A stretch of DNA of 64,000 nt from Dehalococcoidia bacterium UBA5760 (GCA_002418895.1 DIFA01000017.1:668-64667), one strand, 5' to 3'. Shown: positions 17,692 through 36,945, numbered from the stretch's first letter. Notes: generated by a model not told the origin, from the sequence alone. Program-made: numbers and translations.

Positions 17692-17850
17692 CAGTTGCTC
17701 CTTTCAAATCCTCTATCTATCTCTATGAATTGCCTGTCCCGGGCATACCATAATCTGGTGTGATGAGATTCATGGCCGGGCATGTCCGGTATGGCCAGGG
17801 GGTAGAACTTTAATCATTTCGTGTCTGCCGGTACACGACGGTATTAGTGT

Positions 17851-17859
17851 ATTCTAGCA
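17851..17859 (-). promoter_or_regulatory. candidate extended -10 promoter element (TGcTAGAAT) for ahcY-metK
   Basis: The minus strand reads TGCTAGAAT about 160 nt upstream of the ahcY ATG. No good -35. Confidence 0.3.
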
Positions 17860-17938
17860 TATATTACTGGTTCGGCTCCAGTAAGTATCCCGGGTGTTTC
17901 CGGATGGTACCGGCCCGGGCTACTGTGATTGAAGAGAC

Positions 17939-20017: not shown

Positions 20018-20228
20018 AACGGCCTCTGGTTTAAACTTTGCCTATCCCCCCGGGTATCGACTGAGGATATTTATGCCTGCCAACATACCCTGGCCTTCCA
20101 GAGCAACTACCCGGGTCGGTCCTCTTTATCAACCGATACCTTTCTGTCAGGACAAGCATAGCAATAAGATGTCCCTGCTGTAAATCCCTTTGCGGGAAAG
20201 ATGACTTTTATGCAGGTTGATTAAGAGT

Positions 20229-20257
20229 ATTGACAGAATGGTATACTCTGAGTACTA
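20229..20257 (+). promoter_or_regulatory. candidate promoter for the KS/DegV transcription unit
   Basis: TTGACA (20229-20234), 17-nt spacer, TACTAT (20252-20257). An alternative extended -10, TGGTATACT, lies at 20238-20246. Confidence 0.4.
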
Positions 20258-20468
20258 TTAATGGTAGACTTTTTCGGTATGGAGAGTCCCTTCCCTATGT
20301 TCTATTGCTGTGGTCGGAGCGGTAAACGTGCAGGTTATTGCGGTAGGGCAGCTTTTCCTTGTCGTGGCGGGGTCTCTACGAATAAGGAATAGATAATTAC
20401 TGTCTAATATATAAATCCATCCTGCCAGTGCCGCTTAATTTATCAGTGTTAAGGAGAGGTAGCTTGAT

Positions 20469-21695
20469 ATGCAACGAGTAGTTATTACCGGGATGGGAGT
20501 GGTTTGCCCGATAGGATTGAGTATTGATAGTTACTGGACAAGTCTGGTGGAGGGGAAATCGGGGGTGGACTTTATCAGTCACTTCGATGCCAGCAACTAT
20601 CCGGTAAAATTGGCTGCCGAGGTAAAAGGATTCAACCCGGCAGACCATCTCGATTCCAAGATGGTGCAGCGCACGCCGAGGTGTGTTCACCTGGTTGTGC
20701 CGGCGCTTAGAGAGGCTGTGGCTCAAGCCGGATTGGATATGGCTGATGAGCAGCCGGAGCGTGTCGGTGTTATCGGTGCCAATATGCTGGAATATCAGTA
20801 CGTTGGCGAGGACTGGGAGAGGCTTAAGCAACGGGGGCCTAGGAGGGTTGATCCCCTGCTGTTTACCAAGGCAGGACCCAGTACGGTATCCCTCCAGGTG
20901 GGAATGCTGCTGGGGGCGAAAGGGCCCAACAGCACTGTGAATAGCCTTTGCGCCAGCGGCACCGATGTCATAGCCACTGCTCGTAACTTCATCCAGTTCG
21001 GCTATGCCGATGTGATGATCGCGGCGGCATCCGATGCTTCACTTAGTGAATTGGGTATCGCTTCTATCAGCTTGCTGGGGGCGCTGACTAAAGAACCGGA
21101 TCCGGATAAGGCCAGCCGGCCCTTTGACCTTAACCGCAACGGTTTTGTTTATGGGGAGGGGGCCGGAGTATTAGTCTTAGAAAGCCTGGAGCATGCCCGG
21201 AAGCGGGGGGTGCCGGTTCTGGCTGAGGTAGCCGGCGCCGGCTGGTCGTTTGATGCTTATGACGCCACTGCTCCCCAGCCGGAAACAGAGGCTGTCGCTA
21301 TGCGAAGTGCCCTTAAAAATGGTGGGGTAAGGCCGGAAGAGGTGGACTATATTAATGCCCATGGTACCAGCACCAAGCTGAATGACCGCAGTGAGACCGA
21401 AGCTATCAAGATGGTATTTGGTGAGCGGGCTTACCGGATACCGGTAAGCTCTTTCAAGTCTATGTTTGGCCATATGGTAACCGCCGCCGGTGCTGTTGAG
21501 GCTATTGGTGCGGTACTGGCCATCAATAATGCTACCATCCCGCCGACTATCCATTATGAGACCCCTGATCCGGAGTGTGACCTGGACTACGTGCCCAATG
21601 TGGCTCGTAAAGCCCGGATAGATGTCTGCTTGAAGAGCAGCTTCGGGCTCGGCGGTCAGAATTGCTGCCTGGTTCTCAAGAGATTTACGGAATAG
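20469..21695 (+). CDS. beta-ketoacyl-ACP synthase, KAS I/II (FabF-like) with intact Cys-His-His triad
   Basis: 408 aa. Active-site Cys in NSLCASGTD, His in NAHGTSTKLND and KSMFGHMVTAAG. Confidence 0.85.
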   Translation: MQRVVITGMGVVCPIGLSIDSYWTSLVEGKSGVDFISHFDASNYPVKLAAEVKGFNPADHLDSKMVQRTPRCVHLVVPALREAVAQAGLDMADEQPERVGVIGANMLEYQYVGEDWERLKQRGPRRVDPLLFTKAGPSTVSLQVGMLLGAKGPNSTVNSLCASGTDVIATARNFIQFGYADVMIAAASDASLSELGIASISLLGALTKEPDPDKASRPFDLNRNGFVYGEGAGVLVLESLEHARKRGVPVLAEVAGAGWSFDAYDATAPQPETEAVAMRSALKNGGVRPEEVDYINAHGTSTKLNDRSETEAIKMVFGERAYRIPVSSFKSMFGHMVTAAGAVEAIGAVLAINNATIPPTIHYETPDPECDLDYVPNVARKARIDVCLKSSFGLGGQNCCLVLKRFTE

Positions 21696-21744
21696 AGATA
21701 AGATAACCTTAACGCAGGGAATACAAAATAAGCGAGGTGCCAAT

Positions 21745-22614
21745 ATGGAGAAGGTAGTTATCAGTAGTGATTCGGGTACTATACTTCCGGAAGCGGCCAA
21801 AAATTACGGGTTTACCATGATCCCCGTCCCTATCATCATTGATGGTGAGACCTATCTGGACACAGAAATAAACATGGATGACCTCTATGCTCGCCTGGAT
21901 GGGAAGGAAAACCTGCCCAAGACTTCAACTGCTAATGTTGCCGAGTTTGCCCAGTTTTTTATCGACTTGGCCCGCAATACCGAGGCTATCCTGCATATCA
22001 GCATGTCATCGGTGTTTAGCGGCCATCACAACGCTGCTTTGCAGGGTAGGGAATTAGCCATTGAAAAGTTGTCCAATACCAGGATTGAGATAGTCGATTC
22101 GCTTACCATGGGGACTGGTGTTGCTCTGATTGCTATTCAGGCAGCCAGGGCGGCGGCGCAGGGTAAAAGTATGGATGACGTTATGAAACTGGTTGCCAGT
22201 ATCATCCCGCAGATGAAACTCTTTCTGGCTCGCGATACCCTGTTCTATCAGGCGGAGGGTGGCAGGATATTTGAAGCCAAGACCTGGGCCGAGGCCGAGC
22301 AGGCCACCAGCTTCAGGTCGATAACCGAGGTAGACTCGTCTACCGGTGGAGCGTTAAGGCCGGTTGCCAGGGCCAAGACGGTAGCCCAGATAATGGAGAA
22401 GCTCGTTGAGATAACTAGGGAGAAAGGTCAGGGTAGCAAACTGGTTGGTGTTATCGGTCATACTCGAGCACTGGAGCGTGCCGAGAAGCTAAGGGAAATG
22501 CTCCGCGCCGATCTCGATTTCGACTGGCTGGAGATTGCTGAGGAGTCGGCAAGCGCTGCCATACATACCGGTAAAGGGCTCATTGGTTACGGTTTTTGTA
22601 GCAAGCTTGATTAG
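21745..22614 (+). CDS. DegV family fatty-acid-binding protein (FakB-like)
   Basis: 289 aa. The N-terminus VVISSDSGTILPEAAKNYGFTMIPVPIIIDGETYLD is typical of DegV. Confidence 0.8.
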   Translation: MEKVVISSDSGTILPEAAKNYGFTMIPVPIIIDGETYLDTEINMDDLYARLDGKENLPKTSTANVAEFAQFFIDLARNTEAILHISMSSVFSGHHNAALQGRELAIEKLSNTRIEIVDSLTMGTGVALIAIQAARAAAQGKSMDDVMKLVASIIPQMKLFLARDTLFYQAEGGRIFEAKTWAEAEQATSFRSITEVDSSTGGALRPVARAKTVAQIMEKLVEITREKGQGSKLVGVIGHTRALERAEKLREMLRADLDFDWLEIAEESASAAIHTGKGLIGYGFCSKLD

Positions 22615-22684: not shown

Positions 22685-24550
22685 ATGCTCCCGCAGAGAA
22701 TTGCCTATCTGGATTTAGATATGAGGAAGGTCGAGGTTAAAGAGGTCCCCGAAGAAATCACCAGGAGGTTTCTCGGCGGCCGCGGAATTAATATCTATCT
22801 GCTCTATCACAGCGTTGGCCCCGAAACTCACCCGCTGTCTCCCCAGAACCCCCTTATTATCGGACCGGGGATGGTAACCGGACTGAAAGGGATAAGCGCT
22901 TCGAGGTGTAATATTTCGGGAAAGTCCCCCGAATCAGGATTGCTGGGCGATTCCAATATCGGTGGGTATTTCGGAGCTTTTATGAAGAGGACGGGTATCG
23001 ACTTCCTTTTTATCACTGGATCCTCCTCGAAACCGGTCTATATCTACCTGGATAAGGAAAGGATTAGCATTGAAGACGCTCGGGATCTGTGGGGAAAATC
23101 AACCACGGAAACCGATATGATTTTGTCAGAACGCTATGGCCCGGCTTGCCAATCCATCTCGATCGGGGTAGCTGGAGAAAACCTGGTGCGTTTTGCCTGC
23201 ATCATCAACCGGAAGAAGAATACTGCCGGCAGGACGGGCATGGGTTGTCTGATGGGGTCTAAGAAGATAAAGGCAATCGTGGTAAACGGTAAAGAGCCGG
23301 TAGAGCCGGAGGATGAGGCTGGATTTGATAGGTTAATGAGAGGGTTTCAGCAGGGGTTAAAAAAAGAGCCTCTGGTCAAATTGCTGGGGGAGTATGGTTC
23401 GTCTCTGCTCTATATCCTGGTCAACCGGCGAATCGGCATGGGCCGGTCGTATAACGGGCTCTCGACAAAATTCCCCGGAGGCGAGAATATTTCGCCCAAC
23501 ATACTGAAAGATAAATACTACACCGGGAAGGCCGGTTGCTATTCCTGTCCGGTCTCCTGTCACCACAAGTACCGGGTCGGTGAAATAGAGAGCGAAGGCC
23601 CGGAGTATTCTATTCTGGCCAGCTTCGGCCCGGTGGTGGGCATAAAGCGGTTGGAGGCGGTTCTTTATATCAATGACCTGATAAATCGCTATGGCCTGGA
23701 TTCCAGTTCTACGGCTAATCTCATCGCCTGGACAATCGAACTACTTAAGAGGGGCCTTATCGATCAAAGTGTGACCGATGGCCTCAGTCTTGACTGGGGA
23801 AACGAGGAAGCTATCATCGAGCTGATTCACCGGATTGCCCACCGAAAAGGTCTGGGTAACATTCTCGCTGACGGGGCCAGGGAGGCGGTAAGGTATTTCG
23901 GTGAAGAAACGGGCCGGTATCTTCTCTGGTCGAAGAATCTACCGCAGACCGACCCTGCTGATTTGAGGTATTTCCCTGCCTACGCCCTGGGCGATGCTAC
24001 CGCTTCGAGGGGGCCGGATCATTTAAGGAGCCGGCCTACCTGGGAGTCCTATCGACTTTCTGAAGAAACCCTGAGGGGTATCTACGGCGGTGATATTTCC
24101 GCCAATCCCCGCAGCTACCTGGGAAAGGGTAGGGTAATCTGGTGGTGGGAGACATACCTTTCCCTGTTCGATGCCCTGGGAATCTGTAAACTGATCGCTT
24201 TTCATTGCCAGCCCGGTCTTATTGATTTTGCCTTCTTCTCGGAACTGGTTCGCTGTGCCACGGGTATTGATTTGACGGCGGAGGAAATCTTTGCCGTCGG
24301 AGAGAGGATTGTCAACCTGGAGAGGATGTTCCTGGTCAGGGAGGGAATAAAGAGGAAGGATGACTTTCCTCCCCAGAGGTATTTTGAGCCTTTGGCCTGG
24401 CAGGACGGACTGAAGCCCGAAGAGAAGGACTTGAAGCTGGACAGGGCGGCTTTTGAGGGGATGCTCGATGAATATTACCGGCTCCGCGGTTGGGATAGCG
24501 AAGGCGTGCCGCTGTCTGGAACCAAAGAGCGTTTGGGTTTAGCACGATGA
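22685..24550 (+). CDS. aldehyde:ferredoxin oxidoreductase family protein (tungsto-/molybdopterin, 4Fe-4S), paralog 1
   Basis: 621 aa. The N-terminal AOR domain has RFLGGRGIN. The cluster ligands are CYSCPVSC (CxxCxxxC) plus a distal Cys in DALGICKL. Confidence 0.85.
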   Translation: MLPQRIAYLDLDMRKVEVKEVPEEITRRFLGGRGINIYLLYHSVGPETHPLSPQNPLIIGPGMVTGLKGISASRCNISGKSPESGLLGDSNIGGYFGAFMKRTGIDFLFITGSSSKPVYIYLDKERISIEDARDLWGKSTTETDMILSERYGPACQSISIGVAGENLVRFACIINRKKNTAGRTGMGCLMGSKKIKAIVVNGKEPVEPEDEAGFDRLMRGFQQGLKKEPLVKLLGEYGSSLLYILVNRRIGMGRSYNGLSTKFPGGENISPNILKDKYYTGKAGCYSCPVSCHHKYRVGEIESEGPEYSILASFGPVVGIKRLEAVLYINDLINRYGLDSSSTANLIAWTIELLKRGLIDQSVTDGLSLDWGNEEAIIELIHRIAHRKGLGNILADGAREAVRYFGEETGRYLLWSKNLPQTDPADLRYFPAYALGDATASRGPDHLRSRPTWESYRLSEETLRGIYGGDISANPRSYLGKGRVIWWWETYLSLFDALGICKLIAFHCQPGLIDFAFFSELVRCATGIDLTAEEIFAVGERIVNLERMFLVREGIKRKDDFPPQRYFEPLAWQDGLKPEEKDLKLDRAAFEGMLDEYYRLRGWDSEGVPLSGTKERLGLAR

Positions 24551-25542
24551 AGATAGCTGTTATTGGTGCCGGGGCGATCGGTGCGTTAGTAGCTGGTTAT
24601 CTCAGCAGGGAGGGGGTTGATGTTACTTTGGTCGGCAGGGCGAGTGATGTCCCTGTTATTAAGGACGACGGTCTTGCCATCGACGGAGTAAGAGGAAACA
24701 CAGTCGTTCCGGTGAAGGTGACCGATAAGCTCGAAAAGGGCTTTGGTCTGGTTATTCTGACGGTTAAAACGCAGGATATTAATTCGACTCTGAGCGGGAA
24801 TGTCAAGGCCCTGGGGAATGCTCCTCTCCTTACCGTGCAGAACGGCGTGAGGGCGGAGGAAATTATTCGGGGACTTATTCCCAAGGAGAATATCGTCAGC
24901 AGTATCGTTATGTTCGGGTCAACCTACCTTGAGGCGGGCAGGATTCTGCATAACTTTGAGGGGGACTGGGTAATCGGCAGGGCGTTTGCACCGAATAACG
25001 GGATTATTGACAGTATAGGTGACCTGCTGGCTGGTGCCTTCTCCGTCCGCATCACGGACAGGATAACAGGAATGAAGTGGCTGAAACTCTTCTTGAATTT
25101 GAATAATTGCCTGCCTGCCCTAACCGGGAGGAGTATGCAGGAAACGTTTTCCCATCCCGATATCTCCTGTTTGAGCATCCGTCTTCTGAGCGAGGCACTG
25201 TCGGCGGTAGACCGGGCGGGAATAGAGCTGGAGTCACTGCCGGACTTCCCTGTGGCAAGACTGCGGGCACTCACTACTATGCCGCTGGCGGAGGCGGGAG
25301 AGGTATTTTCTAAAACGATGACCAATCTGAGCCGGGAGCCGCTCTTCGGCTCTATCTTACAGAGCATCAAGAGGGGAAAACCGTCCGAGATTGATTATTT
25401 CAACGGAGAGATAGTGTATCTGGGGGAGAAGATAGGAGAGGATGTGACGCTGAATAAGAAGATGGTCGAGATGGTACACACGGTAGAGGAGAGCGGCAGG
25501 TTTCTCAGTCCGGGAGATATTCTAAATGAAATCGGGGGATAA
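24547..25542 (+). CDS. 2-dehydropantoate 2-reductase family (ApbA/PanE-like) NAD(P)H oxidoreductase
   Basis: 331 aa. Rossmann N-terminus MKIAVIGAGAIGALVAGYL. The start overlaps the AOR stop (ATGA). Confidence 0.7.
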   Translation: MKIAVIGAGAIGALVAGYLSREGVDVTLVGRASDVPVIKDDGLAIDGVRGNTVVPVKVTDKLEKGFGLVILTVKTQDINSTLSGNVKALGNAPLLTVQNGVRAEEIIRGLIPKENIVSSIVMFGSTYLEAGRILHNFEGDWVIGRAFAPNNGIIDSIGDLLAGAFSVRITDRITGMKWLKLFLNLNNCLPALTGRSMQETFSHPDISCLSIRLLSEALSAVDRAGIELESLPDFPVARLRALTTMPLAEAGEVFSKTMTNLSREPLFGSILQSIKRGKPSEIDYFNGEIVYLGEKIGEDVTLNKKMVEMVHTVEESGRFLSPGDILNEIGG

Positions 25543-25544
25543 GA

Positions 25545-26177
25545 ATGGCAGAAGATAGACCCAAATCAGCCGGGACATCTAAAGTCTCGGGAAAGACCAG
25601 GAAGAACTTTCACGATGTTCCTCTCTTGGTTACGGTGAGTAAGGTCAAGGAGGAGTGCTATCGGGGCTACAAGGAGGGTGATGCCTTTGTCTTCGAAGAC
25701 TTCACCAAGACGCCCCGTGGTTTTTGCCAGGGTGCCGCCGCCGTACTTTTTCCTTGCCTTTATGCCCTGACCTTCGGCGCGGAGTTTCAATTTGAAGGTA
25801 ATCCCCGCTCTATTCACACCACCTGTCCCGATGGTGGTAAGGTCGAGTTCTTCACCCAGGTGCTTACTCAATCTGGGGAAGTGGAAAAGGGTGAGAAGAA
25901 AGAGCATCACGGGCCGAGTCCCAAAAAGATGATTATCAGCGTGGAAGAGGTCAACGGGCACTGTGCCTACGATTACAAACCGGGGGACACTATTGAGGTA
26001 ACCGGACTCAGGACCCCCCAGGGTTTTTGTGGGGCTGCCTATAACGCCCTCTTCCCCGTCCTTTTCGCCCTTAATATGGGGGCTAAATTTTCCTTCTCAG
26101 AGGATCAGAATGCTAACCTGCGCGTGACCTGCCCCGATGGGGGAATAATCAGGTTTAAGGTAAGGAGGATCCAGTGA
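25545..26177 (+). CDS. Cys-rich protein made of two tandem copies of a ~85-aa domain ending in CPDGG (resembles TIGR04076-type small proteins)
   Basis: 210 aa. Repeat 1 is C..GY.EGD....GFCQGA...TCPDGGKVEF; repeat 2 is C..DY.PGD....GFCGAA...TCPDGGIIRF. The family assignment is from memory and was not searched. Confidence 0.55.
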   Translation: MAEDRPKSAGTSKVSGKTRKNFHDVPLLVTVSKVKEECYRGYKEGDAFVFEDFTKTPRGFCQGAAAVLFPCLYALTFGAEFQFEGNPRSIHTTCPDGGKVEFFTQVLTQSGEVEKGEKKEHHGPSPKKMIISVEEVNGHCAYDYKPGDTIEVTGLRTPQGFCGAAYNALFPVLFALNMGAKFSFSEDQNANLRVTCPDGGIIRFKVRRIQ

Positions 26178-27439
26178 TTAAGAGACGTGTGGTGGTTACC
26201 GGTCTGGGGGTTATTTCTCCTAACGGCATTGGTAAAGAGGCTTTCTGGAAAAATACGGTCACCGGCAAGTCGGGGGTAAGGCGGGTTACCGATTATGATG
26301 TCTCGCAATTCCGCTCTCAGATAGCCGCTCAGGTGGTTGACTTCGATCCCTTTGCCTTTGGCCTCAGTGGGGAGGAGGTGGAGAGGATGGACCGCTATGT
26401 ACAGTTTGCCGTGGCCGGGGCGGAGGCCGCTGTAGCTGATGCCAGGTTTGTTTTCGGTGATGAGATAAGAGAACGGACGGGGATCTGTCTCGCTAATGCT
26501 ATCTGCGGCACAAGATATATGGACGAAGAGTTCTTGAGGGTGACCAACGGCGGCAAAGACCCTATCGATCCCAAAAAGGTAAGGCCGCATCTTTATGATG
26601 CCTCCATGTTCAATACCCCTTCCAGTGAAATAGCGGCACGCTATCAATTAAAGAGTATTTGCGCCACCGTATCTACCGGTTGTACCGCCGGTACCGATGC
26701 CGTGGGTTTTGCCTATGAAGTTATCCAGGATGGGTTGGCCGATGTCATGATTACCGGTGCCGCTGAGGCGCCTCTCTGTCCGATAACCTTTGCTTCTTTT
26801 GATGTCTTGAATGTAATCTCAGCGAGAAACGGTGAGCCGGAAAAGGCTTCCCGGCCCTTCGATAAGGAGAGGGATGGGTTTGTCCTCTCTGAAGGGTGCG
26901 GCATTCTGGTTCTGGAGGAGCTGGGCCACGCCCTGAGCCGCGGCGCTCGTATCTACTGTGAAATCAAGGGTTTCGGCACCTGCTGCAATGCTTACCATAT
27001 GACCGACTTGCCTGCCGATGGTGATAGTATGGTCCCTTCTATCAAGCTTGCCTTAAATGATGCCGGGCTGCTCCCGGAGAAGATCGGGTATATCAATGCC
27101 CACGGGAGCTCCACCAGGCAGAATGACGTGTTCGAGACGAATGCCTATAAGAAGGTCTTTGGCAGCAGGGCTTACCAGATTCCGATAAGCTCTCTCAAGT
27201 CTATGATCGGTCATCCCCTGGCGGCCGCCAACAGCGTCGAGCTTGTTGCCGGTGCCCTTACCTTTGAGACCGATATCCTGCCGCCAACGATAAATCAGGA
27301 AGTTTCCGACCCGGATTGCGACCTGGACTATGTTGCCAACAAGGCTCGTGAAAAAAAGGTTGATTACATCTTGAAGACCAGCAGCGGTTTTTCCGGTGTC
27401 CATTCCTCAATGATACTGGGAAGGTGGAACTCTAATTGA
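26174..27439 (+). CDS. type II PKS ketosynthase alpha (KS-alpha)
   Basis: 421 aa, GTG start overlapping the upstream stop (GTGA). TVSTGCTAGTDAVG (Cys170), NAHGSSTRQND, SLKSMIGHPLAAAN. Confidence 0.85.
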   Translation: MIKRRVVVTGLGVISPNGIGKEAFWKNTVTGKSGVRRVTDYDVSQFRSQIAAQVVDFDPFAFGLSGEEVERMDRYVQFAVAGAEAAVADARFVFGDEIRERTGICLANAICGTRYMDEEFLRVTNGGKDPIDPKKVRPHLYDASMFNTPSSEIAARYQLKSICATVSTGCTAGTDAVGFAYEVIQDGLADVMITGAAEAPLCPITFASFDVLNVISARNGEPEKASRPFDKERDGFVLSEGCGILVLEELGHALSRGARIYCEIKGFGTCCNAYHMTDLPADGDSMVPSIKLALNDAGLLPEKIGYINAHGSSTRQNDVFETNAYKKVFGSRAYQIPISSLKSMIGHPLAAANSVELVAGALTFETDILPPTINQEVSDPDCDLDYVANKAREKKVDYILKTSSGFSGVHSSMILGRWNSN

Positions 27440-28647
27440 AAAAAGTGGCTGTTACCGGGTTAGGTATAGTAGCCCCTCCCGGAGTGGGCAAGGAAGAATT
27501 CTGGCAGAACATAAGGGAGGGGAAGTCATTCATTTCCCCTATTACCAGATTCGATGCTTCAGCCTATCCTTCACGGGTGGCCGGGCAGGTTAAAGAACTG
27601 GACACAGGTCACCTTTCTCCCCGTCTCTTGAAGAAGATGGACCGGTTCTCGGTGATGGCTCTGGTAGCTACCGGGCAGGCCCTGAAAGACGCCGGTATAG
27701 ATTTGGCTAAAGAAGACCCTTACAGCGTAGGCGTCTTCCTGGGCAATACACTGGGCGGGTGGCTTTATGCGGAGACAGAGCTGCGTGACCTCTACCAGGA
27801 AGGCAGGAATGGGGTAAGCCCTTATAACGCCAGCGCCTGGTTTGCCGCGGCTCCCCAGGGCCAAATCTCTATTTGTTACGGCGTCAAGGGGTATAGTAAG
27901 ACGGTAGTCGCCGACAGGGCCGGAGCTTTGATGGCTATTGGCTGTGCGGTAAGGGAAATCAGAAACAATAAAGCGGCCATTGCTCTGGCTGGAGGCACCG
28001 AAGCACCGGTTACTCCCTACGCATTGCTCTGCTGCACCACGGAGGGCTCTCTTTCCGGGGGTACTTATCGACCATTCGATAAGGAAAGGGATGGTTTTGT
28101 TATCGGTGAAGGGGCGGCGATCATAACCCTGGAGGATATGGATTCCGCTCGAAGCAGGGGGGCGACTGTCTACGGGTCGATTACTGGCTTCGGAACTTCC
28201 TGTGATGGCACTCACCGTATCACGCCGGATCAGGATGGTAGAGGGTTGACCAGGGCGATAAAGACTGCCCTGGACGGTGCCGGTTATCAGCCCGGTGATA
28301 TTGATTATATTTGTGCCGATGGAGCGGCAACCGAACTGGGGGATGTCAGCGAAACAAGAGCAATCAAGGCGGTATTCGGCAGTTATGCGGCGGAAATACC
28401 GGTCAGCGCCCCGAAGTCCATGTTCGGACACCTGCTGGGGGCATCCGGTGCCATTGACCTGGTCGGCACTCTGCTGACTATGCAGGAGGGGGTTATTCTG
28501 CCCACGATAAATTACCGGACGGAGGACCCGGAGTGCAATCTGGACTATGTGCCGAATAAATGTAGGTCTAAAGAGGTTAATCGTGCCATTGTCATCTCGC
28601 GCGGTCGCGGAGGCATAAATGCCGTTTTGGCTGTAGAAAGGAGTTAG
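27436..28647 (+). CDS. type II PKS ketosynthase beta / chain-length factor (non-canonical: Arg at the Cys/Gln position)
   Basis: 403 aa. The TTG start overlaps the KS-alpha stop. TVVADRAGALMAIG aligns residue-for-residue with KS-alpha TVSTGCTAGTDAVG. The first His is lost (CADGAATELGD) and the second is retained (KSMFGHLLGASG). Confidence 0.8.
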   Translation: MKKVAVTGLGIVAPPGVGKEEFWQNIREGKSFISPITRFDASAYPSRVAGQVKELDTGHLSPRLLKKMDRFSVMALVATGQALKDAGIDLAKEDPYSVGVFLGNTLGGWLYAETELRDLYQEGRNGVSPYNASAWFAAAPQGQISICYGVKGYSKTVVADRAGALMAIGCAVREIRNNKAAIALAGGTEAPVTPYALLCCTTEGSLSGGTYRPFDKERDGFVIGEGAAIITLEDMDSARSRGATVYGSITGFGTSCDGTHRITPDQDGRGLTRAIKTALDGAGYQPGDIDYICADGAATELGDVSETRAIKAVFGSYAAEIPVSAPKSMFGHLLGASGAIDLVGTLLTMQEGVILPTINYRTEDPECNLDYVPNKCRSKEVNRAIVISRGRGGINAVLAVERS

Positions 28648-28652
28648 CGGTT

Positions 28653-28889
28653 ATGGCGAATATCGAAGAAAGGGTGCAGGATTTTTTCGCCAAGTTCCTT
28701 GACCTGAGTCCTGCCGAGATTACTCCGCAGGTTAACCTGAGGGATGATCTTCAGATGGACTCAACGGAAATGGTGGAGCTGGTGGTGGCTTTAGAAAAAG
28801 AGTTCAATATCCATCTCAAGGATGGTGAGATTACCAACAGGAATTGCTTCGGCGACGTGTTAAAGACCGTTGGAGAGAAGCTGGGATAA
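28653..28889 (+). CDS. acyl carrier protein
   Basis: 78 aa. The phosphopantetheine Ser lies in DDLQMDSTEMVELVVALEKEF. Confidence 0.85.
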   Translation: MANIEERVQDFFAKFLDLSPAEITPQVNLRDDLQMDSTEMVELVVALEKEFNIHLKDGEITNRNCFGDVLKTVGEKLG

Positions 28890-29692
28890 TGAGAATTATT
28901 GACCTGAGTCTCCCCATCGATGACGGTGTTTTTGAGCCCCACCCGGTAAAGATAAAGAGGTGGGGACATCGGGATGGCGGAGACCGTTTCGGCCGGATTT
29001 GGGCGAAGTCTCACGGGATAAGAGGAATTCTGGGCTATATTACGGGACGGGAGCGGATTACGCGTAATTCCTTCAGGGACGGTGCCTTCCTGTCCCTGGA
29101 GTGGGTCAGGGCGGCGGTCCATAGCGGCACTCACCTTGATGCGCCCTATCATTTCGGGCCTATTTCGGAAGGAAAAGAGGCCAAGAAGATAGAGGATATA
29201 CCCGTTGAGTGGTGCTATGGGAACGGTGTCGTCCTGGACTGTTCTCAAAAAGAGCCCGGAGGGCTTATTGTCAGGGAGGATGTAGAGCGAGCGCTCGACA
29301 GCATTCGGCATGAGATAAAGCCCATGGATATCGTCCTTATCCGTACCGGCGGCGATAAGTTATGGGGAACTCGGAAATACTACTCCCATTTTGTCGGGGT
29401 GAGCCGGGAGGCGCTTGCCTATATTCTGGACTTCAAGGTAAAGGTGGTCGGGATTGATACCTTTAGCTTTGACCGTCCGCTCAGCAGGATGGTGACTGAT
29501 TTTCTAAAGACGAAGGATAATGCTCACCTCTGGCCGGCCCACTTCTACGGTAGGGAAAAGGAGTACTGTCACATCGAGAGGCTGGCCAACCTGGATAAGA
29601 TTCCCTCGTATGGTTTCCGGCTGGCCTGTTTCCCGATAAAGATAAAAGGGGTAGGTGCCGCTGCGGTAAGAGCGGTTGCCATTATTGAATAA
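28889..29692 (+). CDS. metal-dependent 'putative cyclase' family protein (kynurenine-formamidase-like fold)
   Basis: The track ORF starts at 28844, but MRIIDLSLPI at the ATG at 28889 overlaps the ACP stop (TAATG). Signature HSGTHLDAPYHF. Confidence 0.75.
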   Translation: MRIIDLSLPIDDGVFEPHPVKIKRWGHRDGGDRFGRIWAKSHGIRGILGYITGRERITRNSFRDGAFLSLEWVRAAVHSGTHLDAPYHFGPISEGKEAKKIEDIPVEWCYGNGVVLDCSQKEPGGLIVREDVERALDSIRHEIKPMDIVLIRTGGDKLWGTRKYYSHFVGVSREALAYILDFKVKVVGIDTFSFDRPLSRMVTDFLKTKDNAHLWPAHFYGREKEYCHIERLANLDKIPSYGFRLACFPIKIKGVGAAAVRAVAIIE

Positions 29693-29706
29693 ATAAGGAG
29701 GCAAGA

Positions 29707-30153
29707 ATGGGACATACGGTAAACTCTATTCTGATCGAGGCGCCTTACGATCGGGTCTTCGATATCTCCAACGATATCGGGCGGTGGACGGAGTTGTTCG
29801 GCGGTGAGTACAAAGAGGCCAGGGTGCTGAAACGGGAGGGGAACAAAATCACCTTCCAGTTGACCGATAATGAAGGTAATTCCTGGCAGTCCTTCCGTCT
29901 CCTCTTTAAGGATTATTACTTTACCTATGCCCAGAAGATGGAGCCGGCATTTCCCTTCAAGTATATGAAGATTATCTGGCTCTATACCCCTACCCCGGCA
30001 GGAGTAAAGCTGACCTGGGTGCAGGATTTTACCATGGCGGACGGAGCCAAGTTTAACGACGAACAGGTTGAAGGCTTCATCAACAAGCATTCCCGGGATA
30101 ATCTGCAGATATTCAAGAGTGTGATAGAGAAAGAAGCAGGGAGTAAGAGATGA
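29707..30153 (+). CDS. SRPBCC-fold polyketide aromatase/cyclase (monodomain ARO/CYC, TcmN/ZhuI-like)
   Basis: 148 aa. HTVNSILIEAPYDRVFDISNDIGRWTELF... has the typical Polyketide_cyc2 N-terminus and size. Confidence 0.7.
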   Translation: MGHTVNSILIEAPYDRVFDISNDIGRWTELFGGEYKEARVLKREGNKITFQLTDNEGNSWQSFRLLFKDYYFTYAQKMEPAFPFKYMKIIWLYTPTPAGVKLTWVQDFTMADGAKFNDEQVEGFINKHSRDNLQIFKSVIEKEAGSKR

Positions 30154-30923
30154 GCGAACTGAAGGGTAAGACGGCTATCGTTACTGGGGCAAGTCGGGGT
30201 ATCGGCGGAGCGCTGGGGATGGCGCTGGCAAAAGAGGGGATGGACCTGGTGCTTGCCGCACGCGGCCGGGCGGTGCTCGAAGAGACCGCCGCGGGGCTGT
30301 CCCGTAAATATAATGTGCGGGTAGTTCCGGTAGCCTGTGATGTTACCCGGCAGGGCGACCTGGAGAATCTGGCCGCTACTGCTATCAAGGAGTTCAATAA
30401 GATAGATGCCCTGATCAACAGCGCCGGGGTAAGCAGCCAGTACCCCTTTCAGGAGCAGCCGCTCGAAGACATCGCCAGGCTGATGTATACCAATTACTTC
30501 GGGGCGGTGATGCTGACCCGCCTCATGATCAACCACTTTATCGAAAACAAGAGCGGCGCCGTTATCAATATTACCTCCGGCTCAACCCTGGTAGACCCGC
30601 CGCCGAGAAACTTTATCGTTTATTCCTCTCTGAAGCGGGCGCTGAATGCTTTTAGCAAGGGGCTTTTCTGGGAGTTGAGGGACCAGGGTATCAAGGTAAC
30701 CTCGATTATGCCCGGGGTTACCGATACCGCCCTGACCGGAGGGCTTGCCGAGATTTCAGTGGACCGTTCGCGTCTGATGCAGACCGGGGTGATAGAGGAT
30801 GCCGTCAAGTTCGCTCTCTCCGTACCGGCCAATGTCTGTCCTCTGGAGATTTCGGTTATCAACCAGCGCACCCCCTGGACGAGTCCGGTAATTCCATACC
30901 GACAGGACCATCCCAAAGAATGA
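30150..30923 (+). CDS. SDR-family ketoreductase
   Basis: 257 aa. TGASRGIGGALG, NSAG, and the catalytic YSSLK. The start overlaps the upstream stop (ATGA). Confidence 0.85.
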   Translation: MSELKGKTAIVTGASRGIGGALGMALAKEGMDLVLAARGRAVLEETAAGLSRKYNVRVVPVACDVTRQGDLENLAATAIKEFNKIDALINSAGVSSQYPFQEQPLEDIARLMYTNYFGAVMLTRLMINHFIENKSGAVINITSGSTLVDPPPRNFIVYSSLKRALNAFSKGLFWELRDQGIKVTSIMPGVTDTALTGGLAEISVDRSRLMQTGVIEDAVKFALSVPANVCPLEISVINQRTPWTSPVIPYRQDHPKE

Positions 30924-31840
30924 TGTTTGATGCGCATATTCACTGGCTGCCCGGGGAGATTATCGAAAATGCCCACTTTTACTCTGCCGCCTGGGGTAGT
31001 ATCGAGGGTCAGCTTGAGGTCATGGACAAATTTCACATCGATAAGACCCTCATCGTTTATCCGACCAATGATGCCTACCGGAAGATGGGGGGACTCGGAG
31101 AGGTTGCCCGGCTCTACAATGACCGCATAGCCGGGGTGGTGGGAAGATACCCGGAGCGGTTCGTCGGAGCGGCTATCCTGCCGGTCGATGAGCCGGAAGA
31201 GATGGCCAGAGAGTTCGAGCGGGTAACCAAGGGCCTGGGGTTCAGGGCCCTTTCCCTGGCGACCAGCTTTGACGGCATATACCTGGATGATGAGCGGTTT
31301 TGCCATCTCTATGAGGAGGCGGAGTCGCTTAATATCCCCATCTTTGTTCATCCCCAGACGATAAATCCGATAGGCTACGAGCGGATAAAGGACCCCCTGC
31401 TTACTCCTGTCATCGAGTTCGTCTTCGATACCACCATCTGCATCGGCAAGCTGATTATGGCGGGTACGCTCAGGCGGTTCCCCAACCTCAAATTTATCTT
31501 TGCTCATTTCGGGGGCGTCACCCCCTTTATCAAGGAAAGGTTCGACAGCATATACCGGATGCTCAGAGGCAGAGATATCGTTAAGGACCTCTTTGCCCTG
31601 CCCGGCGAGTATCTGAGGCGGATATATGTGGATACCAGCGGCGTTACCTCCAGTCATGCTCTCATGTGTACCCTGGAGATGGTGGGTGCGGAGCATATTC
31701 TGTGGGGCAGCGACTACCCGGGTAACCCCGACATACCGGCCTCGATCAACGCCATCGAGAAACTCGATATTCCTGCCCGTGAAAAGGCGAAGATACTGGG
31801 GGCAAACATGGAGCGGGTGCTGTCCGGGGCAATCACCTGA
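30920..31840 (+). CDS. amidohydrolase_2 (ACMSD/LigW-type) family metal-dependent hydrolase/decarboxylase
   Basis: 306 aa. N-terminal DAHIH metal motif, later VHPQ, FAHFGG and WGSDYP. Overlaps the KR stop. Confidence 0.7.
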   Translation: MMFDAHIHWLPGEIIENAHFYSAAWGSIEGQLEVMDKFHIDKTLIVYPTNDAYRKMGGLGEVARLYNDRIAGVVGRYPERFVGAAILPVDEPEEMAREFERVTKGLGFRALSLATSFDGIYLDDERFCHLYEEAESLNIPIFVHPQTINPIGYERIKDPLLTPVIEFVFDTTICIGKLIMAGTLRRFPNLKFIFAHFGGVTPFIKERFDSIYRMLRGRDIVKDLFALPGEYLRRIYVDTSGVTSSHALMCTLEMVGAEHILWGSDYPGNPDIPASINAIEKLDIPAREKAKILGANMERVLSGAIT

Positions 31841-31858: not shown

Positions 31859-32731
31859 CTAGCTGTCCTTACGCAGGTATTTATCTACCAGCAGCTTGAG
31901 TTTTTCCTTCTGTTCGGGCGGTATCGAGGCGGGATCGGTGACAATCGCTGTCTTCAGGGCGGTGGTGCAGTCGCAGTGGCGTTCGTGCGGTATCCTGGCG
32001 GCGGTTACTCTGATGATTTCCCTGATCTTGTCGTTGTTCTGCTTCAGTGTCTCTATGATGATATCAATCGGGGTCGGCTTATCGTGTTTCTGCCAGCAGT
32101 CGTAGTCGGTGATGCTGACGATAGCGGCGTAGCATATTTCGGCTTCCCGGGCCAGCTTGGCTTCGGGTGAGGCGGTCATACCGATGACATCGCTCCCCCA
32201 GGAGCGGTAGAGGTTTGATTCGGCTCTGGTGGAGAAAGCTGGGCCCTCCATCGCCAGATAGGTCCCGCCCCGGTGGATGGCAGCTCCGGCCTCCTTTGCT
32301 GTCCGGTAAAGAAGCTGGCTCAGTACCGGGCAGAATGGCTCGGCAAAGATGATGTGGGCAACGATGCCGCCGCTGAAGAAGGAGCTTGCCCGGTTGCGGG
32401 TGCGGTCGATAAGCTGGTCGGGGATGACCAGCTCGCCGGGTTTGAACTCCTGATTGAGGCTGCCGGCGGCGTTCACCGAGATTATCCACTCCACTCCCAG
32501 AGACTTCAGGGCGTAGATATTGGCCCGGTAGGGTACCTCGCCGGGGGAGAGGTGGTGCCCCTTGCCGTGACGGGGCAGGAAGGCAACCGCAGTCCCTTCC
32601 AGATGCCCGGTGGTGATGGTGTCACTCGGCCTGCCGAAAGGCGTCTCAATATCAACCTCTGCGATATCAGTCAGCCCTTTGATATGATAGAGCCCGCTGC
32701 CTCCGATTACTCCGATTTTCGCCTCCGGCAT
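31859..32731 (-). CDS. mtnP: S-methyl-5'-thioadenosine phosphorylase
   Basis: 290 aa. The N-terminus KIGVIGGSGLY and an overall PNP/MTAP pattern. The ATG shares one base with the stop of the upstream RM gene. Confidence 0.9.
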   Translation of the reverse strand: MPEAKIGVIGGSGLYHIKGLTDIAEVDIETPFGRPSDTITTGHLEGTAVAFLPRHGKGHHLSPGEVPYRANIYALKSLGVEWIISVNAAGSLNQEFKPGELVIPDQLIDRTRNRASSFFSGGIVAHIIFAEPFCPVLSQLLYRTAKEAGAAIHRGGTYLAMEGPAFSTRAESNLYRSWGSDVIGMTASPEAKLAREAEICYAAIVSITDYDCWQKHDKPTPIDIIIETLKQNNDKIREIIRVTAARIPHERHCDCTTALKTAIVTDPASIPPEQKEKLKLLVDKYLRKDS

Positions 32732-36904: not shown

Positions 36905-36945
36905 TCTGGCCTTCTCGTGAACTTCCTTTGCCGGAGTAAGTTTTC

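Follow-up and report, generated by a model that had tools for sequence, protein, structure and literature searches.

A type II polyketide synthase operon of Dehalococcoidales with relatives among strict anaerobes, and its probable aromatic product

Results

Gene content and borders of the operon

The DNA analysed here (the window) is a stretch of 64,000 nucleotides from Dehalococcoidia bacterium UBA5760. Ten ORFs were found on the plus strand between 22685 and 31840 (Table 1), all of them at the positions given in the original prediction. Of the six overlapping junctions that it had described, five are 4-nt overlaps (at 24547, where the AOR gene runs into the PanE-like gene, and at 26174, 27436, 30150 and 30920) and one is a 1-nt overlap (28889), while the other three junctions are gaps of 2, 5 and 14 nt. 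Most of the starts have a Shine-Dalgarno-like purine run upstream. All ten genes are intact and show translational coupling. Pfam domains were assigned to the operon proteins with E-values from 1e-8 to 1e-97: AFOR_N/AFOR_C, ApbA/ApbA_C, PP-binding, Cyclase (PF04199), Polyketide_cyc, adh_short and Amidohydro_2, and in two proteins ketoacyl-synt with Ketoacyl-synt_C. Neither the operon nor any of 83 related loci was found to hold a dehydratase, enoyl reductase, oxygenase or P450; absence of the first two from the operon had been predicted. Genes for a malonyl-CoA:ACP transacylase or a phosphopantetheinyl transferase (PPTase) were seen neither in the operon nor among the annotated genes of the window.

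The operon had been described as flanked by the core genes plsY and mtnP. Its GC and GC3 indeed match those of core genes, and no tRNA lies within the window; however, a FabF-like KS and a DegV-family gene intervene just upstream of the operon, so plsY is not its immediate neighbour. The FabF-like KS reaches 471.5 bits on the fabF model TIGR03150 (cut-off 493.75) and is 41% identical to the KS-alpha of the operon. It is separated by 49 nt from the DegV gene, which ends 70 nt upstream of the AOR gene. Both lie outside the conserved cluster: the FabF-like KS adjoins it in no relative but the closest of the Dehalococcoidales (L010), and the DegV gene only in close relatives (L003, L010, L012). 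The FabF-like KS is possibly co-transcribed with the operon. A promoter-like site was noted at 20230-20258, in a scan that gave no enrichment over shuffled sequence.

Table 1. Positions of the operon genes and of neighbouring features in the window
Feature	Position	Strand	Remarks
FabF-like KS	20469-21695	+	upstream of operon; Cys-His-His triad intact
DegV-family (fatty-acid-binding) protein	21745-22614	+	Pfam DegV, E 2e-50
Tungsten-type aldehyde:ferredoxin oxidoreductase (AOR)	22685-24550	+	operon gene 1; AFOR_N E 6e-70, AFOR_C E 5e-97
PanE/ApbA-family NAD(P)H-dependent reductase	24547-25542	+	Pfam ApbA and ApbA_C
Tandem TIGR04076 protein, Cys-rich, two repeats	25545-26177	+	TIGR04076 99 bits, 2 stretches
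Predicted KS-alpha of type II PKS	26174-27439	+	GTG start; Cys170/His310/His347 triad
Chain-length-factor-like KS-beta (CLF)	27436-28647	+	TTG start; 4-nt overlap with KS-alpha
Acyl carrier protein (ACP), discrete, 78 aa	28653-28889	+	Pfam PP-binding, E 2e-9
Metal-dependent 'putative cyclase' family enzyme (PF04199)	28889-29692	+	Pfam Cyclase, E 6.5e-33
Predicted monodomain TcmN/WhiE-type aromatase/cyclase (ARO/CYC; SRPBCC fold), 148 aa	29707-30153	+	full-length PDB matches
Classical short-chain dehydrogenase/reductase (SDR)	30150-30923	+	Pfam adh_short, E 1e-46
Amidohydrolase_2 enzyme, predicted ACMSD/LigW decarboxylase subgroup	30920-31840	+	Pfam Amidohydro_2, E 8e-34
Type IIG restriction-modification gene	32731-35691		between MTAP and MtnA

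The ketosynthase pair

The motifs that had been quoted for the KS-alpha (TVSTGCTAGTD, HGSSTRQND and KSMIGH), the ACP, the cyclase, the SDR and the amidohydrolase are all present. Among PDB sequences, the KS-alpha scores highest with the act KS-alpha (1tqy_A) and AntD (388 bits each), against 353 bits for the best FabF, 236 bits for the highly reducing Iga11, and 289 and 220 bits for a ladderane-type pair. In a neighbour-joining tree with few references, among them no act CLF, aryl-polyene KS or highly reducing KS, it forms one split with act KS-alpha and AntD, apart from FabF, in 100% of 200 bootstraps. These three proteins have in common an insertion of 5-6 residues and the STGC/HGSxTxQND motifs, both absent in FabF and CLF. 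The identities are closer together, at 46-47% to act KS-alpha and AntD versus 42% to FabF. Profile scores alone cannot split the pair from fatty-acid KSs, since the NCBIfam FabF models give near-equal values for the KS-alpha (457 bits), the CLF (400 bits) and the adjacent FabF-like gene (471 bits). Judged from PDB scores, tree and insertion, the KS-alpha is best placed with the aromatic-PKS KS-alphas, which agrees with the original prediction, against which nesting in FabF or reducing clades would have counted.

The CLF carries, as predicted, changes at the catalytic Cys (Arg) and at the first His (Asp), and from these replacements it is taken to be catalytically dead. In relatives, Arg or Lys stands in place of the Cys and Asp in place of the first His, and at the second His position either His or Asn is found. 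It has no Gln at the active-site position; this Gln primes actinobacterial systems. The best PDB matches of the CLF are FabFs (313 bits), with act CLF at 256 bits, and its placement relative to FabF in the tree has a bootstrap value of 52%.

ACP, cyclases and tailoring enzymes

The ACP contains DSTEMVEL, with the Ser within the DSTEM motif. The PF04199 enzyme, for which the gene caller picked the ATG at 28889, has the metal motif HSGTHLDAPYH; among solved structures it comes closest to isatin hydrolases and kynurenine formamidases (at most 47 bits), and its gene occurs in 55 of the 83 loci. The SRPBCC protein gave full-length PDB matches (E about 1e-24) to WhiE (3tvr, 3tl1 and 2kf2, about 90 bits) and TcmN (2rer, 88 bits), and the equivalents of TcmN W28, Y35, W65, S67 and R69 are kept. 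It can thus be assigned by homology as a TcmN/WhiE-type aromatase/cyclase with catalytic Tyr and Arg conserved, and the affinity to PKS cyclases that had been suspected is confirmed at this level.

The SDR has the motifs TGASRGIG, NSAG and YSSLK. Its best PDB match is clavaldehyde dehydrogenase (101 bits), and act KR is not among its top 60 PDB matches. A role as C9 ketoreductase was considered and could not be demonstrated for this generic classical SDR, in which nothing points specifically to polyketide ketoreductases. The Amidohydrolase_2 enzyme, with an N-terminal HxH motif (DAHIH), matches LigW 5-carboxyvanillate decarboxylase (110 bits) and ACMSD (96 bits) in the PDB, followed by gamma-resorcylate, 2,3-dihydroxybenzoate and salicylate decarboxylases at 54-80 bits; these matches put it among the LigW/ACMSD aromatic-acid decarboxylases.

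AOR, PanE-like reductase and TIGR04076 protein

In the original prediction these three were listed as genes preceding the PKS genes. They are present, and comparison with related loci shows that they are conserved parts of the cluster. The AOR has a CxxCxxxC cluster motif and matches P. furiosus AOR (1aor) best in the PDB (318 bits; BamB 195 bits), and its first-gene position is kept in the Methanoperedenaceae, Syntrophaceae and Thermodesulfobacteriota copies. The PanE-like reductase scores 154 bits on TIGR00745 (cut-off 141), and its gene is the most constant partner of the KS pair (76 of 83 loci). The TIGR04076 gene adjoins the pair in 49 of 83 loci, and a fusion protein, P0247, joins PanE and TIGR04076 in one chain. 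Invariant residues of the TIGR04076 protein are C38, C61, C94, C140, C162 and C196, that is, three Cys per repeat. It has no sequence match in the PDB, and its AlphaFold2 model (pLDDT 89.5, pTM 0.82) found no match among PDB folds with Foldseek (best E 0.22, TM at most 0.26); the fold is thus confidently predicted and has no PDB counterpart. We know of no precedent for AOR, PanE or TIGR04076 in characterised type II PKS clusters, and literature searches were likewise empty.

Distribution of the cluster

A genome scan found a close KS-alpha relative in about 490 species-level genomes, and the partner genes accompany it in the 80 best of these. Most hosts are Omnitrophota, joined by Dehalococcoidales and Desulfobacterota; a methane-oxidising Methanoperedenaceae archaeon with the same operon was found separately. 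Gene set and order are the same in Methanoperedenaceae, Syntrophaceae, Thermodesulfobacteriota, Dehalococcoidales and many Omnitrophota, and the hosts are strictly anaerobic species. The conserved accessory set of the family comprises AOR or ALDH, PanE, TIGR04076, the TcmN-type ARO/CYC, the LigW-type decarboxylase and a BchE-like B12 radical-SAM enzyme, the last being added in many relatives. Identities between the window and Omnitrophota (KS-alpha 66-70%, CLF 54-64%, SRPBCC 57-77%, SDR 51-71%) argue for one conserved product. Occurrence of the accessory genes in relatives without the KS pair had been raised as evidence that would tell against the original prediction; none was seen in look-ups from the TIGR04076 protein or in the 83 loci. 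The tree indicates that the operon passed between phyla, and it was probably transferred between domains as well.

The cluster is commonest in small-genome Omnitrophota, where a cluster-linked aldolase with an SCP2 lipid-binding domain was noted and an AMP-ligase is often present. Its hosts also include aromatic-compound degraders, namely Syntrophaceae and the benzene fermenter ORM2a; three homologous-cluster proteins had no spectral counts in the portion of the proteomics supplement available for benzene-degrading ORM2a.

Discussion

Comparison with known systems

The anthraquinone (ant) system of Photorhabdus laumondii (AntA-I) is likewise a non-actinobacterial type II PKS, and a ketoreductase, an aromatase and a cyclase belong to it too. 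AntD, joint best PDB match of the operon KS-alpha at 47% identity, was itself reported to be among the KSs nearest to FabF (PMC6638757). AntH has been described as a 'structurally unique tridomain' ARO/CYC (PMC6638757), whereas the operon encodes a 148-aa monodomain protein. AOR, PanE, TIGR04076 and the LigW-type decarboxylase are all in the operon and all absent from ant. In turn, ant encodes a dedicated PPTase together with a CoA-ligase-like helper and the AntI lyase, and none of the three is in the Dehalococcoidales operon.

With the WhiE (spore-pigment) and Tcm (tetracenomycin) systems of Streptomyces the operon has the minimal KS-alpha/CLF/ACP set in common. Over its full length, its ARO/CYC is homologous to WhiE-ORFVI and to the TcmN N-terminal domain, with the catalytic residues conserved, and this suggests that an unreduced chain is cyclised. 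Identity of the operon KS-alpha to an actinobacterial KS-alpha is only about 46%, and the CLF is FabF-like and without the Gln. In Streptomyces clusters, cyclases of the TcmI/TcmJ type occur along with tailoring enzymes that depend on oxygen; neither such a cyclase nor an oxygenase was seen in the operon, whose host belongs to a strict-anaerobe lineage. The actinorhodin (act) cluster shares the KS-alpha/CLF/ACP core and supplies the top KS-alpha match, and a PF04199-family cyclase presumably fills the role assigned to ActIV. However, the act ARO/CYC is a didomain protein, the operon SDR is not act-KR-like, and act CLF ranks below FabFs as a match to the operon CLF. In place of the act or ant type originally proposed, the ARO/CYC is of the monodomain TcmN/WhiE type, and the logic is TcmN/WhiE-like, on an unreduced chain, instead of act-like. 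Among strict anaerobes, Clostridium has an aromatic type II polyketide pathway, that of clostrubin; we know of no report of AOR, PanE or TIGR04076 in the clostrubin cluster.

The pathway had also been called uncharacterised, which needs qualification. A 2023 catalogue of type II PKSs already listed KS-CLF pairs from Chloroflexi and Candidatus Omnitrophica, with three Candidatus Methanoperedenaceae CLFs (PMC10132072). It describes a primarily non-actinobacterial, uncharacterised KS-CLF clade near the FabF root and reports that a 'type II KS' is frequently paired with a 'type II FAS' domain, a description that agrees with the operon in taxa and in the KS-like/FabF-like split (PMC10132072). The catalogue is a survey of KS-CLF pairs, and the conserved accessory set is not mentioned in the part available (PMC10132072).

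Function of the operon

The interpretation as an aromatic type II PKS is largely supported, and all three observations named beforehand as refuting it were looked for with a negative outcome. It draws on the KS-alpha PDB scores, 100% split, PKS insertion and motifs; on the TcmN/WhiE-type SRPBCC protein with its catalytic residues and the Amidohydrolase_2 enzyme near aromatic-acid decarboxylases; on the lack of dehydratase, enoyl reductase, oxygenase and P450 in the operon and 83 loci; and on conserved gene set and order, translational coupling and the PanE-TIGR04076 fusion. Counted against it are the FabF-model scores, the modest KS-alpha identities and the small neighbour-joining tree; the CLF, closer to FabFs than to act CLF, without Gln and with 52% bootstrap; the SDR without polyketide-ketoreductase affinity; the AOR, PanE and TIGR04076 genes, for which we know of no precedent in characterised type II PKSs; and the missing spectral counts in the available portion of the ORM2a data.

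Some of these points would suit a specialised fatty-acid-type elongation system whose product is an uncommon lipid or the head group of one, with the SRPBCC protein as a lipid-binding or dehydratase protein. KS-alpha and CLF reach 400-457 bits on FabF models, the CLF is nearer to FabFs than to act CLF, and the Omnitrophota aldolase with SCP2 domain and frequent AMP-ligase fit lipid chemistry, as do plsY, the FabF-like KS and the DegV protein ahead of the operon; NaPDoS2 and antiSMASH, according to the catalogue, label many non-actinobacterial KS-CLF pairs 'type II FAS' (PMC10132072). This reading seems quite improbable, however. Dehydratase and enoyl reductase were found neither in the operon nor in the 83 loci, and the plsY/FabF/DegV neighbours are confined to the closest Dehalococcoidales relatives. 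The grouping of the KS-alpha with act KS-alpha and AntD, its PKS insertion, the specifically WhiE/TcmN-like SRPBCC protein and the aromatic-acid type of the decarboxylase also speak against a lipid.

A short or non-aromatic product, of cispentacin type or a highly reducing polyene, with other roles for the 'cyclases', is likewise unlikely. The atypical CLF with Arg or Lys at its active-site position and a PF04199 enzyme nearest to hydrolases would be compatible with it, and reducing steps could come from the SDR and the PanE-like reductase; but the operon has no dehydratase, the TcmN-type catalytic residues are intact, and the KS-alpha scores far lower with Iga11 and the ladderane-type pair than with act and AntD. 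Partial matches to the AmcF model, at 177 bits, also speak for it, yet they stay well under the cut-off of 325. We hold it very improbable that the operon is catabolic and serves to degrade a phenolic compound anaerobically, with AOR, decarboxylase, a PF04199 ring hydrolase and the SDR as the main enzymes and the KS pair acting thiolytically. Anaerobic degradation of aromatics typically employs AOR, LigW/ACMSD-type decarboxylases and SDRs; PF04199 includes dihydrophloroglucinol cyclohydrolase, phloroglucinol reductase is one of the SDRs, and some hosts degrade aromatic compounds. Nevertheless, a discrete ACP together with a dead KS-beta and a TcmN-type ARO/CYC marks a biosynthetic system, to our knowledge no KS/CLF pair has a catabolic role, the cluster is commonest in small-genome Omnitrophota, and the available ORM2a counts do not favour catabolism.

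We therefore consider, with a probability of about 0.72, that the operon is a Dehalococcoidales chromosomal copy of a widely conserved anaerobe-type type II PKS operon, which most likely makes a cyclised aromatic polyketide with oxygen-free tailoring; the aromatic nature of the product is what we infer. By analogy with the respective families, the ACP would be served by the malonyl-CoA:ACP transacylase and PPTase of the host, and the KS-alpha/KS-beta dimer would lengthen a poly-beta-keto chain to a length set by the KS-beta cavity. The monodomain ARO/CYC would then fold the unreduced chain and close and aromatise the first ring, which characterised relatives close between C9 and C14. The PF04199 metalloenzyme may carry out further ring closure, release of the chain from the ACP, or both, and the LigW/ACMSD-type enzyme may take off a terminal carboxyl group. 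Carbonyls of the ring or side chain might be reduced by the SDR and the PanE-like reductase, the latter probably as partner of the Cys-rich TIGR04076 protein, and the tungsten AOR might interconvert carboxylate and aldehyde, in either direction, on the product or starter unit. The original view of a chromosomally fixed pathway in an unusual host holds for this host, in whose chromosome the cluster is fixed; its family, in contrast, is widespread, with close KS-alpha relatives in about 490 genomes, and has moved between phyla.

Architecture and surroundings of the operon

All ten open reading frames of the original prediction were found on the + strand, and every motif quoted in it was present in their translations. 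The families assigned with Pfam and NCBIfam are listed in the table below. The junctions are as had been claimed: five genes overlap their predecessor by 4 nt (24547, 26174, 27436, 30150 and 30920) and one does so by 1 nt (28889); the remaining gaps are 2, 5 and 14 nt, and purine-rich Shine-Dalgarno-like runs stand ahead of most of the starts. This Dehalococcoidales version of the operon comprises ten genes in about 9.2 kb with no foreign genes in between, and its GC and GC3 match those of core genes. A scan for promoters and terminators between 19.9 and 32.8 kb gave counts not above those of shuffled sequence, so the operon boundaries are not derivable from it. No tRNA was found in the whole window.

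Features in and around the operon, with two features of homologous loci
Feature	Sequence	Position	Strand	Remarks
SAM synthetase, S-adenosylhomocysteine hydrolase, 256-aa class I methyltransferase	window	15199-18709	-	just upstream of plsY
plsY facing the FabF-like KS and DegV genes	window	19298-22614	plsY -	
FabF-like third KS	window	20469-21695	+	intact Cys-His-His
DegV fatty-acid-binding gene	window	21745-22614	+	
Ten-gene operon	window	22685-31840	+	
Operon genes 1-3	window		+	AOR (AFOR_N/AFOR_C); PanE/ApbA reductase; tandem TIGR04076 (25545-26177)
Operon genes 4-6	window		+	two ketoacyl synthases (KS-alpha and CLF, i.e. KS-beta); PP-binding ACP
Operon genes 7-10	window		+	PF04199 'cyclase'; Polyketide_cyc SRPBCC; classical SDR; Amidohydro_2
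MTAP	window	31859-32731	-	bona fide, above equivalog cut-off
Type IIG restriction-modification enzyme, 986 aa	window	32731-35691	-	Eco57I, N6_Mtase, MmeI_Mtase and TaqI_C domains
MtnA	window	35864-37039	-	bona fide, above equivalog cut-off
Second AOR	window	50328-52217	+	28% identity to operon AOR
Integrase/transposase genes (rve_3, HTH_Tnp_1)	L006	15708-18506		directly after the archaeal cluster
Extra gene set	L007	1925-8521		

Core genes do flank the operon, as had been stated (SecY, RpoA, PGI, PGM, MetK, AhcY, MTAP, MtnA, his genes, purB and guaA), but plsY is not its immediate neighbour, because the third KS gene and the DegV gene, both overlooked previously, lie just upstream (gaps of 49 nt between the two and of 70 nt from DegV to the AOR gene). 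The third KS scored 471.5 bits on the fabF model, against a cut-off of 493.75. It could, together with DegV, supply a fatty-acyl starter, or both could be plain lipid housekeeping genes. At the 3' end of the operon MTAP and MtnA run convergent to it, and apart from the type IIG gene between them no gene of a defence or mobile kind lies near the cluster. Only in the closest Dehalococcoidales relatives do the third KS, DegV, MTAP and MtnA lie beside the cluster, and more distant Dehalococcoidales copies lack the adjacency of MTAP and MtnA. Therefore, the conserved unit begins at the AOR gene, where the original prediction had placed its start. MTAP and MtnA were considered as cluster members in the window and rejected, since they are of housekeeping types and their adjacency is confined to the closest relatives; it is probably coincidental. 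Their location recalls the diverged paralogues that lie inside the Omnitrophota and Desulfobacterota clusters, and with the genes just upstream of plsY they place SAM-cycle genes on both sides of the operon.

The ketosynthase pair and the carrier protein

The catalytic triad of KS-alpha is intact, with C170 in TVSTGCTAGTD, H310 in HGSSTRQND and H347 in KSMIGH. Its best PDB matches were the actinorhodin (act) KS-alpha and Photorhabdus AntD, at 388 bits each, compared with 353 for the best FabF, 236 for the highly reducing Iga11 and 289 and 220 for a ladderane-type pair of recent description. A neighbour-joining tree was then constructed from 12 related KS/CLF pairs, the FabF-like gene of the window, act KS-alpha, AntD and two FabFs, the last four sequences being rebuilt from the PDB-search alignments. 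In this tree, which is a distance tree with few reference sequences, a split that sets the KS-alphas together with act KS-alpha and AntD apart from the CLFs and FabFs was recovered at 100% (200 bootstraps). The former group also has in common the motifs STGC(T/A)xG and HGS(S/G)TxQND and an insertion of 5-6 residues (GGKD-PIDPKKVRP), all of which are absent from FabF and CLF. From the bit scores, the bootstrap value and the common insertion it can be seen that KS-alpha does not nest within FabF or reducing clades.

The CLF, whose gene overlaps that of KS-alpha by 4 nt, lacks the catalytic Cys and the first His as predicted, and carries Arg and Asp at those positions. In all 12 relatives examined the Cys position is occupied by Arg or Lys and never by Gln; across the relatives the first His is replaced by Asp, and the second is His or Asn. 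Judged from these residues, the CLF is catalytically dead. The Gln that actinobacterial CLFs carry at the Cys position (decarboxylative priming) was likewise not found in the CLF of the window. Its best PDB matches were FabFs, at 313 bits versus 256 for the act CLF, and its placement relative to FabF had a bootstrap of only 52% in the neighbour-joining tree, which did not include the act CLF. By sequence, then, it is not a typical CLF. A housekeeping FabF identity was considered for the pair and rejected, since on the NCBIfam FabF models both KS-alpha (456.6 bits) and CLF (400.5 bits) fall below the fabF cut-off of 493.75 and no FabZ-, FabA- or FabI-type genes occur in the cluster. The ACP was found as described, with 78 aa, the phosphopantetheine-attachment Ser in a DSTEM motif and a PP-binding match at E 2e-9.

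Cyclases and tailoring enzymes

The SRPBCC protein matched WhiE/TcmN aromatase/cyclases (ARO/CYC) over its full length (E about 1e-24; PDB 3tvr, 3tl1, 2kf2 and 2rer), and in the alignment it keeps equivalents of all five TcmN pocket residues W28, Y35, W65, S67 and R69. The affinity to PKS cyclases on which the original prediction depended is thus present, and by these features the protein is a genuine monodomain PKS aromatase/cyclase of the TcmN/WhiE type. In characterised systems the substrates of such monodomain enzymes are unreduced chains. This fits the logic of Tcm and WhiE better than that of act and ant, which had originally been put forward; in Photorhabdus, AntH consists of three domains (PMC6638757).

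The PF04199 protein (domain E 6.5e-33) contains the HxGTHxDxPxH metal motif, and among solved structures those of isatin hydrolases and kynurenine formamidases come nearest to it. The gene called an SDR ketoreductase does encode a classical SDR, but a specific affinity to polyketide C9 ketoreductases was not borne out. Its top PDB match was clavaldehyde dehydrogenase (101 bits); glucose dehydrogenases and FabGs came next, and neither act nor hed KR was among the 60 best matches. An identity as an act-type C9 ketoreductase (ActIII/AntA) is not supported, as these matches show no similarity above that to generic SDRs; the protein could nonetheless be a ketoreductase. The Amidohydro_2 enzyme has an HxH motif at its N-terminus and scored 110 bits with LigW, 96 with ACMSD and 54-80 with gamma-resorcylate, 2,3-dihydroxybenzoate and salicylate decarboxylases. 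These scores place it in the ACMSD/LigW subgroup of non-oxidative decarboxylases, which is consistent with removal of a terminal carboxyl from an aromatic acid; it may instead be a hydratase or hydrolase. WhiE-ORFI may also be an amidohydrolase_2 protein.

For the operon AOR, a role as a BamB-like dearomatising reductase was tried and rejected (P. furiosus AOR 318 bits versus BamB 195), and by these matches it is a canonical AOR. The second AOR gene of the window follows HisZ-like, HisG and HisD genes and precedes a class I/II aminotransferase gene. Domain annotation found no dehydratase (DH), enoyl reductase (ER), oxygenase or P450 in the operon, for which the absence of DH and ER had been claimed, and no DH or ER domain occurred among the conserved families of 83 homologous loci that were compared.

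The TIGR04076 protein and its probable PanE partner

Three Cys are invariant in each repeat of the tandem TIGR04076 protein, and these six suggest metal or Fe-S binding. Its confident AlphaFold2 model (pLDDT 89.5, pTM 0.82) has four strands and one helix per repeat. A PDB sequence search gave no match, and a Foldseek search of the model against the PDB gave nothing significant (best E 0.22, TM <= 0.26). The family is small: a search of the representative library found 210 cluster representatives, most of which contain between one and four repeats. In one of these only, the 449-aa metagenomic protein P0247, a PanE/ApbA reductase (residues 2-314) is fused to a TIGR04076 domain (residues 349-448). 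The fusion suggests that the products of the adjacent PanE and TIGR04076 genes act together. Alternatively, it could be a sequencing frameshift artefact, as the two genes are only 2 nt apart in the window.

Distribution and composition of the cluster

The cluster had been read as an uncharacterised pathway in an unusual host. In species-representative genomes, 490 loci with a KS-alpha relative were found, and at least 120 of the database matches listed are KS-alpha homologues at 67-92% identity. The contig of the window recurs in several metagenome assemblies. The closest genome match is a Dehalococcoidales MAG (L011, 98% KS identity), so that the anaerobe-like host is a member of the Dehalococcoidales in the phylum Chloroflexota. 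The best 80 of the 490 belong to Dehalococcoidales, very many Omnitrophota, among them Candidatus Velamenicoccus archaeovorus with a complete genome, and several Thermodesulfobacteriota, among them the benzene fermenter ORM2a (L064, CP113000.1). A Ca. Methanoperedenaceae archaeon (L006, LR991655.1) has nearly the same operon, with the gene order unchanged and at least nine of ten genes matching, and the Omnitrophota have the same core with other genes in between. KS-alpha identity across Dehalococcoidales, Omnitrophota and the archaeon is 66-79%. Look-ups starting from TIGR04076 proteins, made with regard to whether the genes occur apart from the KS pair, led back to this cluster, KS pair included. 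The cluster is therefore a conserved family.

Gene families beside the KS pair in 83 compared loci, many of them truncated, as counted by all-against-all ORF clustering
Family	Loci
PanE	76/83
Cyclase	55/83
Small DUF2621-like protein	54/83
B12 radical-SAM	51/83
TIGR04076	49/83
SRPBCC	48/83
SDR	46/83
Amidohydro_2	43/83
MtnA-like isomerase	39/83
ACP	at least 38/83
PNP_UDP_1 phosphorylase	35/83
ALDH	34/83
Class II aldolase	33/83
MFS transporter	33/83
AMP-ligase	27/83
AOR	9/83

AOR and ALDH genes never occurred in one locus among the 83. Two Thermodesulfobacteriota loci (L084 and L041) have two AOR genes in the cluster plus a FAD-dependent oxidoreductase that is 57-58% identical to the one beside the Methanoperedenaceae cluster; in neither did an SDR turn up within range.

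Most copies outside Dehalococcoidales contain a BchE/HpnJ-like radical-SAM enzyme, whose score with the BchE model, 240 bits, is under the cut-off. Members of the BchE family carry out oxidative cyclisation without oxygen. In the Omnitrophota and ORM2a-type clusters this enzyme is accompanied by a DeoD/uridine-phosphorylase-like enzyme, one or more diverged MtnA paralogues, an ALDH and a class II aldolase with an SCP2 lipid-binding domain at its C-terminus; the order of these extra genes varies between the groups (Omnitrophota, Desulfobacterota). In four loci of Omnitrophota and Desulfobacterota (L007, L047, L064 and L039) the set includes the DUF2621-like small protein and one or two MtnA paralogues. 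By analogy, the extra set resembles a DHAP shunt for disposal of 5'-deoxyadenosine, or it could instead serve to trim a C-adenosylated intermediate in the manner of HpnH/HpnG or MqnE/MqnB. It is absent from the window, where MTAP and MtnA are the ordinary types.

In a tree of concatenated KS-alpha and CLF sequences, built without the homologous locus L010, the archaeal copy grouped with Dehalococcoidales at 100%, whether it is read as nested or as sister, and the ORM2a-type Desulfobacterota copies fell, also at 100%, inside a subgroup of the Omnitrophota. These groupings indicate that the cluster moved between phyla, and probably also between Bacteria and Archaea. The archaeal cluster is preceded by genes for a FAD oxidoreductase, an FMN reductase and a B12 radical-SAM protein, and the integrase/transposase genes on its other flank fit horizontal acquisition.

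Proposed pathway and alternative readings

Taken together, the intact, translationally coupled genes for KS-alpha, a dead KS-beta and an ACP, the TcmN-type ARO/CYC and the lack of reducing-cycle enzymes support the original interpretation, which we judge essentially right. We put the probability of a functional type II PKS whose product is a cyclised aromatic polyketide, as predicted, at about 0.7, the individual tailoring assignments being much less certain than this overall reading. In the proposed pathway, the malonyl-CoA:ACP transacylase (MCAT) and PPTase of the host would serve the ACP, and the KS-alpha/KS-beta heterodimer would build an unreduced poly-beta-keto chain. The first ring would be closed and aromatised by the ARO/CYC, and the PF04199 enzyme may accomplish further ring closure, chain release, or both. 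The LigW-type enzyme would decarboxylate the product, carbonyl groups would be reduced by the SDR and the PanE/TIGR04076 pair, and the AOR may interconvert acid and aldehyde in either direction.

This reading has its main weaknesses in the CLF, which is FabF-like, in the SDR, which is generic, in the thin reference sampling of the tree and in the ORM2a proteomics. The FabF-model scores of the KS pair are near that of the neighbouring FabF-like gene, so profile scores alone cannot separate the pair from fatty-acid synthases. As for the proteomics, the available part of the PMC13101534 supplement lists the ORM2a homologues OS130_08850 (SDR), OS130_08880 (KS) and OS130_08895 (PanE-like) without spectral counts, and gives spectral counts for FabG and FabZ in the same benzene-degrading culture. 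The cluster is not mentioned in the main text of the ORM2a benzene-activation paper. The genes might alternatively be taken for a short or non-aromatic PKS-like system or for a FAS-like lipid pathway, both of which we consider unlikely to nearly the same degree; a catabolic operon for phenolics is highly improbable. All three are opposed by the placement of KS-alpha with act KS-alpha and AntD, by the intact ARO/CYC and by the lack of both DH and ER.

Within the type II PKS reading, a more specific proposal, speculative and rather unlikely, is that the family makes one conserved redox-active aromatic polyketide (anthrone-, naphthol- or quinone-like) that would serve a physiological purpose where communities are strictly anoxic. 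Such a product may be an exported electron shuttle, which is one possibility, rather than a lineage-specific antibiotic. Oxygen-free tailoring would be carried out by the tungsten AOR and by the PanE-like reductase paired with the new-fold, Cys-rich TIGR04076 protein, and in most relatives the BchE-like B12 radical-SAM enzyme would replace oxygenases. This would explain the high cross-phylum identity of KS-alpha, the MFS transporter in many copies and the repeated transfer.

Significance of the cluster family

Characterised type II PKSs come almost all from aerobic actinobacteria and use oxygenases for tailoring. The distinctive trait of the present cluster is the complete absence of oxygen-dependent tailoring. 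In a literature search no paper was found that describes the gene set, the function of TIGR04076 or any product, and only a 2023 catalogue was relevant (PMC10132072). It reports a large, mainly non-actinobacterial KS-CLF clade close to the FabF root, names Chloroflexi, Omnitrophica and three Methanoperedenaceae CLFs, and poses the question whether archaea make polyketides (PMC10132072). The KS-CLF pairs of these lineages were catalogued before, and the type II PKS described here is distinguished by an accessory set specific to anaerobes. The family, in which this set is fixed and oxygen-free, extends over about 490 species-level genomes from uncultivated anaerobes plus that of a Methanoperedenaceae archaeon, and its compact ten-gene Dehalococcoidales version is a handy construct for heterologous expression. 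The identity of the product would show how aromatic polyketides are completed without oxygen, would provide TIGR04076, and a tungsten AOR linked to a PKS, with their first functions, and would answer the catalogue's question about archaea (PMC10132072).
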